Shown in pieces: positions 1,985 through 47,110 of a DNA stretch of 64,000 nucleotides. Under the pieces are notes generated by a model that was not told the DNA's origin, did not search any database, and saw only the letters and a list, made by a program, of their open reading frames with translations. A program made the position numbers and the translations under genes. Positions within the stretch are counted from its first letter, which is position 1. Each line of letters starts with the position of its first letter. The stretch spans positions 72,128 through 136,127 of the forward strand of contig CAKPFM010000001.1 of the NCBI GenBank assembly GCA_934153945.1, given 5' to 3'. The stretch is from an uncultured Bacilli bacterium (GTDB lineage Bacteria; Bacillota_I; Bacilli_A; RF39; UBA660).

Positions 1985-2135
1985 GATATAATTAATTTGT
2001 TTGAAGAAATGTACCGTAGACAGTAGGGGCTTAGGCTTAATAATCCTACCGAGGACTTAAATAAAAGTTTTCGGCTCTCACTATCTAAGGATGAGAGCTT
2101 TTTATTCGGTATTCATGAAAGAGAGGTGCAAACAA
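1985..2135 (+). promoter_or_regulatory. rplJ leader region (L10-leader-like) ending in a rho-independent attenuator hairpin
   Basis: 150-nt untranslated spacer between rplA and rplJ. Hairpin GCTCTCA-N11-TGAGAGC (2074..2098) is followed by TTTTTATT. Firmicutes rplJ leaders are regulated by L10(L12)4 through a terminator of this kind. Confidence 0.5.
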
Positions 2136-29961: not shown

Positions 29962-30038
29962 GTCCTCGTAGCTCATCGGGATAGAGCAAAAGTTTCCTAA
30001 ACTTTAGGTGGTAGGTTCGAGTCCTATCGGGGACGCCA
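29962..30038 (+). tRNA. tRNA-Arg, anticodon CCT
   Basis: Manual cloverleaf fold: acceptor GTCCTCG/CGGGGAC, D arm GCTC..GAGC, anticodon arm AAAGT-TTCCTAA-ACTTT, T arm GTAGG-TTCGAGT-CCTAT, then discriminator G and encoded CCA. Confidence 0.85.
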
Positions 30039-31158: not shown

Positions 31159-31587
31159 ATGGATATGACAATACAAGATATAATTATTGGAAAATTAATC
31201 GGAAAAAATATTGATTTGATTGATGATTCAATTAAGTTTAATGAACTTGCAAATAAATATATTGATGTTATTGGAAATGCAATAACAAATGTAATAAATA
31301 ATTCAGAAGATCCAATAGAAACATTACGAGTAATAACTTATATTTTATATACAAGAAAATATGTTTTACCGACAGCGACTGCTGATGTGATTAAGGAATT
31401 TACAAATTGTCAAGAAACAGACTTAGAAAATGTAAATAGATTAATTTATTCAATTAAGATTGAGTTGTGTAAGGATAACTTTGATAAAGTTAATATAGAA
31501 AAAATGATTAATGAATCAGAAAATGGAGAAACTCCACATATATCAGAAGAAAGTAGAAAGATAGCGGTAAAAGCATTATTAAAATAA
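31159..31587 (+). CDS. hypothetical protein, 142 aa
   Basis: ORF of unknown family. Confidence 0.45.
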   Translation: MDMTIQDIIIGKLIGKNIDLIDDSIKFNELANKYIDVIGNAITNVINNSEDPIETLRVITYILYTRKYVLPTATADVIKEFTNCQETDLENVNRLIYSIKIELCKDNFDKVNIEKMINESENGETPHISEESRKIAVKALLK

Positions 31588-31694
31588 TTATATCTAAGAT
31601 AAATAAAATTGATATAAAGTAAGTAGTAGTTTATCAAAACAGGATAAGATGTTTGTGTCACATTTTCTGATAAACCCTTATTTCATAAGAAAAT

Positions 31695-31787
31695 TTAATT
31701 AAAAAATGGTGTCAATTTGAATAATAGAAGTATAAGTAGAATGATGATAATGATTAAAACAAAGATTAAAAAATCTTTCTTAGTCAT
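31695..31787 (-). CDS. small hydrophobic peptide (30 aa, MTKKDFLIFVLIIIIILLILLLFKLTPFFN), candidate type I toxin-like membrane peptide
   Basis: ATG 7 nt after a GGAGG SD that lies in a perfect CCUCC-GAAA-GGAGG hairpin on the mRNA strand. Paralog of the peptide at 39544..39627. Not in the supplied ORF track (below the size cutoff). Confidence 0.55.
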   Translation of the reverse strand: MTKKDFLIFVLIIIIILLILLLFKLTPFFN

Positions 31788-31867
31788 TTCACCACCTCCT
31801 TTCGGAGGTAAGCACTCAACGGTTAAAGTATTACTAAATAAATTATATTAAAACATATATTATAAAA

Positions 31868-31892
31868 ATAACTCAAAAGTTATTTTTTTTAA
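31868..31892. terminator. palindromic terminator-like hairpin between peptide 1 and the VTC fragment
   Basis: AATAACT-CAAA-AGTTATT flanked by an A-run and a T-run. Confidence 0.45.
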
Positions 31893-31963
31893 TCTTTATT
31901 TAATAAAATGGAAATAAAATGATAATGAAATGAAGGGCATAATCATTTCTAAAGGAGGAAAAT

Positions 31964-39384: not shown

Positions 39385-39398
39385 AAATATATGAAATA

Positions 39399-39540
39399 TT
39401 GAAAAAAATTTAAATATATGTTAATATGTATTTAGCAAGCAGTCTTGCATAAAATAAAAAAGGGAACATTCAATTGTGCATGTTGAGTGATTGCCTATAT
39501 AGGTTTCACCTAAATCATTGCTGAGTTAGGTGATTTTTCA
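39399..39540 (+). ncRNA. candidate small RNA 'A': consensus sigma-A promoter plus a ~105-nt transcript ending in a terminator that abuts the 3' end of peptide 2
   Basis: TTGAAA-N17-TAATAT (39399..39427). Terminator hairpin CACCTAA..TTAGGTG plus ATTTTT (39507..39538). No ORF. The 5' ~110 bp is duplicated at 39777..39890 (start of locus B). Confidence 0.45.
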
Positions 39541-39543
39541 TAT

Positions 39544-39627
39544 TTAGATTAAAACTATAAATAGTAATAATACTAATAGGAAGATAAGAATTACTAAAGC
39601 AAAGATTAAAAAATCTTTCTTGTTCAT
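39544..39627 (-). CDS. small hydrophobic peptide (27 aa, MNKKDFLIFALVILIFLLVLLLFIVLI), paralog of 31695..31787 and candidate type I toxin-like peptide
   Basis: GGGAGG SD 8 nt upstream of ATG. A CUUCU-AAAA-AGAAG hairpin abuts the SD. The 5' coding region is conserved with peptide 1 at the nucleotide level. Not in the ORF track. Confidence 0.55.
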   Translation of the reverse strand: MNKKDFLIFALVILIFLLVLLLFIVLI

Positions 39628-39795
39628 AATATCGCCTCCCTTCTTTTTAGAAGTTTGGCAAATCACCCAACTATTAAATGTCCCTATAAATAATATATCA
39701 AACATATATTCGTATATCAAGTAGTTTTATTAAATTTATAAAATTTAGTTTTAATAAAGTAATAATATTGTAAAATGATAAAAATATATGAAATA

Positions 39796-39938
39796 TTGAA
39801 AAAATTTTAAATATATGTTAATATGTATTTAGCAAGTAATTTTGCATAAAATAAAAAAGAGGAACATTCAATGTTGCAAGTGAATGTTGCCTCACAAAAG
39901 TGTGTGACACTCTACAAATGCAGGGTGTCTATTTTTTT
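39796..39938 (+). ncRNA. candidate small RNA 'B', second copy of the promoter plus 5' segment of sRNA A with its own terminator
   Basis: TTGAAA-N17-TAATAT (39796..39824). Transcript 5' end is ~85% identical to sRNA A. Terminator GACAC..GTGTC plus TATTTTTTT (39906..39938). Its 3' end is convergent with the gene at 39989..40933. Confidence 0.4.
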
Positions 39939-39988
39939 GTTAATACCATTATTGTTTAGCATGAAATATATAGCACATTTTCATTTTA

Positions 39989-47036: not shown

Positions 47037-47110
47037 GCAGATGTAGTTTAATGGTAGAACCTCAGCCTTCCAAGCTGACTGCGTGAGTTCGATTCTCATC
47101 ATCTGCTCCA
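47037..47110 (+). tRNA. tRNA-Gly, anticodon TCC
   Basis: Manual fold: acceptor GCAGATG/CATCTGC, D arm GTTT..GAAC, anticodon arm TCAGC-CTTCCAA-GCTGA, T arm GTGAG-TTCGATT-CTCAT, then discriminator T and CCA. Confidence 0.85.

Follow-up and report, generated by a model that had tools for sequence, protein, structure and literature searches.

The stretch of DNA analyzed here (the window) is 64 kb of a bacterial chromosome with 24.5% GC, which carries an L10 leader, rpoB, trigger factor, and two tRNAs. An earlier note on this DNA had described a minus-strand gene for a 30-aa hydrophobic peptide at 31695, and direct reading confirmed this ORF (locus A). The features of locus A are listed below.

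31695..31787, minus strand: small ORF of 30 aa, MTKKDFLIFVLIIIIILLILLLFKLTPFFN, with an ATG start (direct reading and ORF listing)
31794..31809, minus strand: hairpin ACCUCC-GAAA-GGAGGU that sequesters the Shine-Dalgarno sequence (SD; GGAGG, 31799..31795)
31761..31778, minus strand: coding-region hairpin AAAGAUU-UUUU-AAUCUUU (codons K4-F9)
31810..31835, minus strand: 5′ leader, AGUAAUACUUUAACC-GUUGAGUGCU, predicted transcription start site (TSS) A31835, aligned to the family profile described below (nhmmer)
31842..31847, minus strand: predicted −10 box TATAAT, which aligns with the TGnTATAAT of the family and is without the TG extension

Read directly, the minus strand of locus A is 5′-...GTTGAGTGCTTACCTCCGAAAGGAGGTGGTGAAATGACTAAG..., and the RNA before the start codon is 5′-ACCUCC-GAAA-GGAGGU-GGUGAA-AUG, with a distance of 7 nt between the SD and the ATG (31787..31785). 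The earlier note had placed the SD in a 5-bp stem with a GAAA tetraloop; the locked SD and the GAAA loop hold, but the stem really has 6 bp (ACCUCC/GGAGGU), with two extra G.U pairs possible. This hairpin is real and goes beyond chance: CCTCCNNNNGGAGG, an inverted repeat of the form CCTCC-N4-GGAGG, occurs once in the window, with 0.00 copies expected from 100 dinucleotide shuffles. The local leader fold had −13.4 kcal/mol. We then folded identical windows from −50 to +60 for locus A and for 27 control genes of the window with a good SD. The pairing probability of the initiation region was 0.99 at locus A versus 0.52 ± 0.15 in the controls, and the minimum free energy (MFE) was −26.9 versus −11.0 ± 4.1 kcal/mol. 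In these predicted folds, the initiation region of locus A is the most occluded among the window genes folded. The coding-region hairpin lies inside a helix that joins the AUG region with codons 12-15. As for the promoter, no −35 box was found at 16-18 nt from the −10 box, and the promoter score of locus A was 8/14 (12/14 at locus B, described below; 5-12 across the family).

The DNA around locus A, including a flanking protein, was identical in six human-gut metagenome contigs (Hadza and others). The small ORF was left uncalled by the gene callers in those six contigs, and an exact look-up of peptide A among called genes gave no match. The small ORFs of loci A and B lie in intergenic gaps and converge on plus-strand genes. 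A leader-peptide or attenuator reading was rejected because the genes after both ORFs are convergent, not co-oriented.

To find relatives, we scanned one genome per species with a degenerate back-translated M-x-KKDFLIF pattern, so that the invariance of KKDFLIF among family members is imposed by the search. The scan yielded 101 genomic stretches, ~80 of which are complete small ORFs of 24-31 aa with the form MxKKDFLIFAL plus a hydrophobic stretch, with or without K. The relatives are spread over ~80 species-level MAGs of RF39/Coprosoma/CAG:822-like gut Bacilli, nearly all labeled Bacilli, Tenericutes, Mycoplasma, Erysipelotrichaceae, Candidatus Coprosoma, or CAG:822; the guts sampled were those of chickens, humans, mice, rabbits, and ruminants. 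Among these MAGs, two are complete chromosomes of ~1.5 Mb, and several carry two or three copies of the module. In the transmembrane (TM) codons, variation at position 2 was 0.055 compared with 0.29 at positions 1 and 3 (~fivefold less), and 94% of the amino-acid replacements were hydrophobic to hydrophobic. The small ORF is uninterrupted in every member, the other frames contain stops, and the SD-ATG spacing is 7-9 nt. These substitution patterns indicate that the small ORF evolves as a coding sequence. Its product has an N-terminal KKD followed by a ~17-residue hydrophobic stretch, i.e., the small hydrophobic peptide expected of a type I toxin-antitoxin (TA) system.

The earlier note had proposed a database search with the peptide, and this came back empty: phmmer returned 0 matches among 1.84 billion protein representatives, and protein databases are therefore uninformative on the family. 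Family peptides gave no match in Pfam at E ≤ 0.01, only noise in NCBIfam (E ≥ 0.5; 9-11 bits against a 45-bit cut-off, to an unrelated family), and no significant match to curated type I toxin profiles (Fst/Ldr, TxpA/BsrG/BsrE holin-like, PepA1/SprG, and others). At the gathering threshold, Rfam detected only the L10 leader and the two tRNAs in the window. Permissive Rfam scans of locus B and of the module of another family locus (L043) gave no match better than E = 0.08 (BsrG scored 12.9 bits; cut-off, 55 bits), and no Rfam toxin-mRNA or antitoxin model (RatA, SR4/BsrG, RNAII/par, Sib, Sok, IstR, and others) reached its gathering score. The peptide motif was not found in a literature search. 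Many type I systems sit on mobile elements. A blastn search with module B gave no match in phage and plasmid collections, nor was the family module found in viral contigs, where the matches were rejected as an unrelated 460-aa protein starting with MCKKDFLIF; this placement and the lack of a match to any known toxin family speak against a type I TA reading. On sequence, the family appears to represent previously undescribed, widely conserved toxin/antisense-RNA-like modules of uncultured gut bacteria.

A search of the window with the full-module profile (nhmmer) gave three matches: locus A, locus B, and unit C. The features of locus B and unit C are listed below.

39544..39627, minus strand: small ORF of locus B, 27 aa, MNKKDFLIFALVILIFLLVLLLFIVLI; the same peptide is also present in family locus L103
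39692..39720, minus strand: toxin promoter of locus B, TTGATA-17-TG-a-TATATT (promoter scan 10/12 with TG; aligns with the family promoter)
39449..39685, minus strand: predicted complete toxin mRNA of locus B, ~237 nt (fold and nhmmer profile)
39685..39657, minus strand: 5′ arm of mRNA B
39653..39640, minus strand: hairpin CUUCU-AAAA-AGAAG of mRNA B
39639..39635, minus strand: SD of mRNA B
39532..39507, minus strand: 3′-UTR hairpin of mRNA B
39495..39482 and 39474..39462, minus strand: 3′ arm of mRNA B
39461..39449, minus strand: U-tract of mRNA B
39399..39543, plus strand: predicted convergent antisense RNA gene of locus B (promoter scan and family-wide promoter/terminator conservation)
39399..39427, plus strand: antisense promoter of locus B, TTGAAA-17-TG-t-TAATAT (TSS ~39434)
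39435..39448, plus strand: 5′ hairpin of antisense RNA B
39507..39532, plus strand: terminator hairpin of antisense RNA B, with U-tract
39792..39940, minus strand: unit C, a 3′-half-only copy without toxin ORF (nhmmer positions 196-315, E = 9e-15)
39929..39906, minus strand: 3′-UTR hairpin of unit C, whose other parts are a GGCAACAUUCAC box and AUUGAAUGUUCC plus U-tract
39796..39939, plus strand: predicted orphan antisense RNA gene of unit C (promoter and terminator scans)
39796..39824, plus strand: antisense promoter of unit C, TTGAAA-17-TAATAT with TG, back-to-back with the toxin promoter of locus B
39906..39929 and T-tract, plus strand: antisense terminator of unit C

Locus B (39393..39711) is intact and covers profile positions 4-317 (nhmmer E = 9.5e-68). 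It corresponds to the paralog that the earlier note had placed 7.8 kb away at 39544..39627, which proved to be real: peptide B of 27 aa and peptide A have in common the exact 22-mer AAGAAAGATTTTTTAATCTTTG (2 copies in the window, 0 expected). Conservation of the coding hairpin at the RNA level explains this identity. Unlike in A, the hairpin of B (CUUCU-AAAA-AGAAG) sits just 5′ of the SD, and the pairing probability of this SD was 0.41 in the local fold and 0.96 in the full-length fold. The predicted mRNA B folded with −65.7 kcal/mol (z = −7.1), and 0/200 shuffles were equally stable. The predicted antisense RNA of B (~110 nt) is the full complement of the mRNA 3′ UTR and ends at the stop codon; its duplex with mRNA B had −161 kcal/mol. 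The profile match of unit C (39911..39792) reaches on to the hairpin at 39929, and the unit is placed between the stop of a 314-aa gene (39989) and the B promoter. The predicted antisense RNA of C paired with mRNA B at −57 kcal/mol (shuffles, −35 ± 4.5). A generic scan independently called the antisense promoters of B and C and the plus-strand terminator of C. From this comparison of sequences, paralog B is the intact module of the window, and the flagged copy A is a 3′-truncated orphan.

Alignment of 64 non-redundant modules revealed conserved blocks on both sides of the ORF. The 5′ blocks comprise the promoter, with TATAAT and in many cases the TG extension, the leader AGGAAYAYUUAAY-A-GUUGRGUG...CC, the SD, and the ORF; the 3′ blocks are a 3′-UTR hairpin, a box GG..ACUCAAC, and a AUUGAAUGUUCC or GUUAAGUAUUCC box with the U-tract directly after it. 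From the predicted TSS to the U-tract, the mRNAs are ~234 nt with a mean MFE of −68.7 kcal/mol, and the first 28 nt form an expected ~23 bp with the 3′ end. The pairing probabilities of AUG and SD in the family mRNAs were 0.86 and 0.77, respectively. Representatives of three subtypes had fold z-scores of −7.1 (B of the window), −8.6, and −7.4, and a common architecture: a two-part 5′-3′ closing helix, SD occlusion, the 3′-UTR hairpin, and an AUG helix that pairs AUG with codons ~12-17 around the AAAGAUU-UUUU-AAUCUUU hairpin in the KDFLIF codons. In silico, translation initiation would thus be blocked by SD/AUG occlusion and by the 5′-3′ interaction, as in type I TA systems.

These pairings are reflected in the variation among family members, for which the shuffle, binomial, and neighbor-orientation statistics given here and below ignore phylogenetic relatedness. 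Duplexes between cognate 5′ and 3′ arms had a mean of −31.6 kcal/mol and non-cognate duplexes −25.1 kcal/mol (0/5000 permutations); with divergent members only, the values were −27.4 and −19.9 kcal/mol. The 5′ and 3′ ends of the mRNA co-evolve. In the proposed structure, 93.7% of the alignment cells are paired, compared with 34-47% when partners were slid by 1-3 columns, and double-sided changes were found in 18 pairs versus 10.3 ± 1.5 in shuffles (0/500). The 3′-UTR hairpin covaries (CG:36/UA:26 and UA:33/CG:23). The coding hairpin (helix 4) is 99.3% paired, and its G-C pair is kept via an ATC codon in 59/62 members despite the AT-rich genome.

The SD is occluded differently among the subtypes. 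In subtype 1 the SD hairpin is conserved; its loop can also read GAAG, GAGA, or AAAA, and its stem varies as well (e.g., UCUCC/GGGGG). In subtype 2 the SD is paired with CUUCC inside the ORF, and in subtype 3 it lies in a longer interrupted stem. Conservation of the hairpin, a check named in the earlier note, holds within subtype 1, and other subtypes use other pairings. The GAAA-tetraloop SD hairpin is subtype-1-specific and one among several occlusion layers.

The block beyond the U-tract has a conservation that makes sense only on the opposite strand. It contains a predicted antisense promoter with a TG-extended −10 box in 61/64 modules, a 17-nt spacer in 57/64, and a −35 box TTGnnA, at a distance from the A-tract that is fixed across the family. 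The predicted antisense RNA is ~112 nt (IQR 107-114) in 62/64 loci, and its terminator, also present in 62/64 (median −15.4 kcal/mol plus U-tract), ends at the toxin stop codon. Its 5′ hairpin covaries (CAAG/CUUG, AUGAGA/UCUCAU, AUGAAG/CUUCAU, and UAAGA/UCUUA) and is followed by an A-rich linker and a body complementary to the whole 3′ UTR. The 5′ and 3′ arms of the mRNA pair with each other in the closing helix, and an antisense RNA that complements the 3′ arm is therefore very similar in its body to the 5′ arm. According to T1TAdb, Gram-positive type I families all have the antisense RNA 3′ of the mRNA and partly overlapping it (PMC8594479). The family layout, an mRNA with a predicted 3′-overlapping antisense RNA, is that of Gram-positive type I TA systems.

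Full modules numbered 87 in a census of 8-kb loci, which also contained at least 14 internal units with the antisense part only; the latter usually lie just upstream of a full module, like C. Locus A was the one clear toxin-only unit; other toxin-only matches were cut by the locus edge, apart from a second match in L023, which was rejected as a diverged complete ORF with its own terminator. The loci in this census were ascertained through the toxin ORF, and the excess of antisense-only units holds nonetheless. Neighbors on the 3′ side converge on the toxin in 51/67 cases, and those on the promoter side diverge from it in 51/62. A tRNA gene lies within 150 nt of 21/87 modules and always reads into the antisense RNA, in many of these 21 from a position 26-35 nt from the antisense promoter. 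This neighbor orientation and tRNA adjacency would be expected if sense read-through were harmful and antisense read-through beneficial.

Locus A itself matches the family profile only at positions 11-156 (31854..31716), which cover the promoter, the leader, and the ORF to codon 24. Family homology stops after this codon (31716); the nearest relatives of the peptide terminate at ...LLLFK (24 aa), and the last six codons of A, LTPFFN, are an extension specific to that copy. Locus A has no family stop codon, 3′ UTR, closing helix, or antisense gene, and the replaced sequence adds LTPFFN. The stretch matching the leader of A is the 5′ arm of the 5′-3′ closing helix in intact type-1 modules, and neither the sequence nor the nhmmer alignment contained a complementary box downstream of A as its 3′ partner. 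The predicted antisense RNAs of B and C would form duplexes of −29.6 and −26.9 kcal/mol with the locus A transcript, which is not better than shuffles (−33 ± 4.4), and trans-regulation by either was dismissed on this ground. A and C were likewise rejected as halves of one split module because their subtypes differ and the strand order is wrong: the 3′ arm of C, AUUGAAUGUUCC, is type-2-like, and the type-1 5′ end of A needs GUUAAGUAUUCC, so that C is not the missing half of A. When 11 proteins of the window were compared with all family loci (tblastn), the search gave three weak neighbors only, in a different arrangement, and located no orthologous site of A or B. A metagenome scan with the type-1 leader gave 4 loci, every one a full module, with 0/4 syntenic with A.

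On these sequences, the most probable reading of locus A is an orphan toxin half, silenced or decaying, which would be kept harmless by its constitutive local translational lock, a weak promoter, and its antisense position to the surrounding plus-strand genes. It is also conceivable, though doubtful, that locus A is an active, antitoxin-independent toxin or peptide gene controlled only through its cis hairpins and convergent read-through from the plus-strand 142-aa gene. Such a gene would fit the intact ORF and local lock, the perfect SD and TATAAT, and the fact that locus A is fixed and identical across six independent metagenomes; moreover, no plus-strand terminator was found between 31587 and the ORF, so that read-through from the neighbor could provide an antisense RNA. 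However, the TG extension and the −35 box have been lost, and the stop codon, 3′ UTR, closing helix, and antisense gene that are gone from A are all present in ~87 relatives. The Pro-containing tail gained by A is absent from every relative, and A is the sole toxin-only copy found. We lean toward the silenced or decaying orphan half as the reading of locus A.

We compared the intact module with known type I systems. In hok/Sok of plasmid R1 and aapA1/IsoA1 of Helicobacter pylori, a 5′-3′ interaction over a long distance locks the full-length toxin mRNA, and local structures are thought to stop translation of the nascent RNA. The module likewise combines a predicted 5′-3′ lock with putative local blocks on the nascent RNA. 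Those systems are Gram-negative and have an antisense RNA wholly within the mRNA and aimed at its 5′ region, whereas the one predicted here is aimed at the 3′ arm of the closing helix, and the module has no mok-like leader ORF. The par system of Enterococcus faecalis (Fst; RNA I/RNA II) and the Fst/Ldr superfamily share with our module a 5′ stem-loop in which the SD is sequestered and a 5′ helix that shields the mRNA end. The par RNAs have only a bidirectional terminator in common and interact via 5′ direct repeats outside the overlap (PMC8594479), whereas the overlap of ~110 nt here is predicted to be the interaction region itself, and there is no match to the Fst_toxin Pfam family. Ibs/Sib and ShoB/OhsC of E. 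coli also have very short (18-26 aa), nearly all-hydrophobic peptides and several copies per genome, but they are proteobacterial, the Sib RNA spans the entire ORF, and sequence and mRNA architecture are unrelated.

The txpA/RatA, bsrG/SR4, bsrE/SR5, and yonT/SR6 systems of Bacillus subtilis likewise encode a small hydrophobic single-TM peptide and have a convergent ~100 nt antisense RNA over the 3′ end of the toxin mRNA (PMC8594479), as is predicted here. Their SD is also partly sequestered, and they are chromosomal, multi-copy, and from Bacillota. No sequence or profile similarity to these systems was found, and the present peptide is much shorter (24-31 aa), with the charge at the N terminus and without a charged C-terminal tail. 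In addition, a 5′-3′ helix closes the mRNA, the predicted antisense RNA is confined to the 3′ UTR and reaches no further than the stop codon, and no prophage association was apparent. The module appears to join two designs: an antitoxin RNA that overlaps the mRNA on the 3′ side, as in txpA/RatA and bsrG/SR4, and a 5′-3′ lock in the manner of hok or aapA1. Since membership tests place it in none of those families, it is best classed as a new type I TA family.

With the sequence features, conservation, covariation, and coding signature described above as the observed basis, we consider it probable that the family works by a type I TA-like mechanism. A sigma-A-type promoter of the intact module would give a ~235-nt mRNA; the encoded peptide has 24-31 aa, starts with M-x-KKD, and contains one transmembrane segment. 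The nascent mRNA would be untranslatable through local structures, namely the SD hairpin or another anti-SD pairing and the helix between AUG and codons ~12-17. On completion of the transcript, its first ~28 nt would pair with its last ~45 nt into a closing helix, leaving a compact, inert mRNA with both ends protected; as this helix abuts the U-tract, it probably doubles as the terminator stem. The convergent ~112-nt antisense RNA, with its own TG-extended promoter, 5′ hairpin, and strong terminator, would pair with the whole 3′ UTR, its body mimicking the 5′ arm of the mRNA and competing with that arm. By analogy with txpA/RatA and bsrG/SR4, the duplex may lead to RNase III-dependent decay and/or a tighter SD lock. 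Loss of the antisense RNA would then allow the presumed toxic peptide to be made and to damage the membrane. The earlier note had likened the hairpin to the translational lock of type I toxin mRNAs; this likeness is supported for the family by its coding ORF, structured mRNA, and predicted antisense RNA, but copy A is without the antisense half.

It is unlikely that the module encodes a non-toxic small membrane protein, such as an accessory part of a membrane complex or a regulator, whose synthesis is adjusted through mRNA structure and a cis-antisense RNA. The coding signature and the single TM helix would fit any small membrane protein, the peptide is unlike any known toxin, and a strictly chromosomal module widespread in one lineage of ~1.5 Mb genomes could indicate a housekeeping role. 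Against this, the module occurs in one to three or more non-syntenic copies per genome, unlike a housekeeping subunit, and has redundant layers of translational repression together with a full-length predicted antisense partner; antisense-only remnants far outnumber toxin-only ones, and the toxin strand is systematically antisense to its neighbors. Copy number, repression layers, remnant asymmetry, and strand placement would all be expected if unscheduled expression were harmful. It is highly improbable that the unit acts mainly as a non-coding element of RNA or DNA (a bidirectional terminator, an insulator, or an sRNA gene after tRNA or protein genes) with an incidental ORF: the 3′ half occurs alone at least 14 times, both strands have terminators, 21/87 modules are directly downstream of tRNA genes, and nucleotide-level selection acts within the ORF (the hairpin G-C pair kept via the ATC codon), but the ORF is open in all members with stops in the other frames, position-2 conservation and hydrophobic-to-hydrophobic replacement point to selection on the peptide, the strong SD 7-9 nt from ATG is conserved, and a terminator needs no upstream promoter, SD, or ORF.

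Within the type I TA-like mechanism, we tentatively raise the possibility that the family follows an unusual logic, with merged termination and silencing, a mimic antitoxin, neighbor placement, and free antitoxin units. The 5′ end of the mRNA would form its own terminator stem, so that termination, end protection, and translational silencing would be one folding event, and the antitoxin RNA would mimic the 5′ arm of the mRNA and displace it from the 3′ arm. Modules would be sited so that neighbors, often tRNA genes, read into the antitoxin strand, and free antitoxin-only units may serve as insulators and spare antitoxins upstream of toxin promoters.

Peptides of this size are below gene-calling thresholds, and RNAs evolve fast. 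A family of ~100 loci, absent from Pfam, NCBIfam, Rfam, and a library of 1.84 billion proteins, was found here from a single hairpin, with covariation strong enough to define a predicted toxin mRNA fold and antisense RNA from sequence. It offers a compact, testable model in which the 5′-3′ closing helix, the terminator, and the antisense target would be merged, a natural experiment with intact, toxin-only, and antitoxin-only copies inside 8 kb, and a ready profile for annotating such loci in gut metagenomes. If the unusual logic is true, these modules could amount to a major group of addiction or defense systems that has so far gone unseen, in a lineage of ~1.5-Mb genomes with no cultured representatives.

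The predicted toxin mRNA carries a perfect 7-bp hairpin, AAAGAUU-UUUU-AAUCUUU, in the KDFLIF codons (columns 76-93 of A3, the alignment of family modules), which is present in two copies in the window:

31761..31778, minus strand, hairpin of locus A, the 3'-truncated copy
39601..39618, minus strand, hairpin of module B, the intact copy

The lineage has a GC content of 24.5%, and an ATC codon keeps the G-C pair of this hairpin in 59 of 62 members. This conservation indicates that the KDFLIF coding stretch is under RNA-level selection superimposed on peptide coding. Outside the coding region, the mRNA 5' box GUUGRGUG has two complementary sites: one is the distal 3' box, and the other is the 5' arm of the 3'-UTR hairpin. 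The 3' arm of that hairpin is similar to the 5' box itself. The window contains the following example:

39671..39664, 5' box
39532..39507, arms of the 3'-UTR hairpin
39495..39482, distal box

This arrangement would allow an alternative strand-exchange conformer of the module mRNA, which might act as a switch or be an intermediate in folding.

A fourth subtype, encoding the 30-aa peptide MTKKDFLIFGLYILIIILLYIIYKLIFILI, was found in L011, L071, L081, and L084 (family loci of the MAGs CADBMU01 and CAKOXC01), and one 248-kb contig holds three copies. Its leader, which contains CAGGGGGUUU, is distinct from those of the other subtypes. Its complementary 5' and 3' boxes also differ: GAUGCUUGC is complementary to GCAAGCAUC, and UAGGGACU to AGUCCCUA. 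The order of these boxes suggests alternative or pseudoknotted pairings.

Adjacent to module B lies a copy of the 3' half without the toxin ORF:

39792..39940, both strands, unit C, with a predicted antisense promoter and predicted terminators on both strands

Unit C is placed between the module B promoter and the stop (39989) of a minus-strand 314-aa gene, and its layout was found again in at least 14 other loci (e.g., L067, L082, L088, L092, and L059). Unit C may insulate module B from read-through and also provide a reserve antitoxin gene. At locus A, no plus-strand terminator was detected in 31587..31960, between the end of the 142-aa gene (31587) and the start of the VTC-domain gene (31964); thus, locus A may lie antisense within a plus-strand transcription unit.

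Three other RNA features of the window are ordinary and have no relation to the toxin modules:

1996..2113, plus strand, L10 leader (Rfam) upstream of rplJ
29962..30035, plus strand, tRNA gene
47037..47107, plus strand, tRNA gene

Across the family loci L007-L107, a gene for a Leu, Arg, Thr, Cys, or Glu tRNA was located within 150 nt of 21 of the 87 full modules, mostly at a distance of 26-35 nt. In every case, it lay on the antisense-promoter side in the orientation of the antisense RNA, as in these loci:

L043, 3309-3385, tRNA gene
L030, 5509-5594, tRNA gene
L107, 4663-4739, tRNA gene

In L013, the antisense promoter is replaced by a tRNA. This adjacency suggests either that the modules inserted into the 3' flanks of tRNA genes or that the tRNA and antisense RNA are transcribed together. 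One further locus contains a tandem array:

L023, 5130..5420, plus strand, full module, then a 3'-half-like piece, then a diverged ORF

The diverged ORF, MGKKDFLILSSILLIIIIILILKI, has a simple terminator of its own. This array shows rapid local duplication and divergence.
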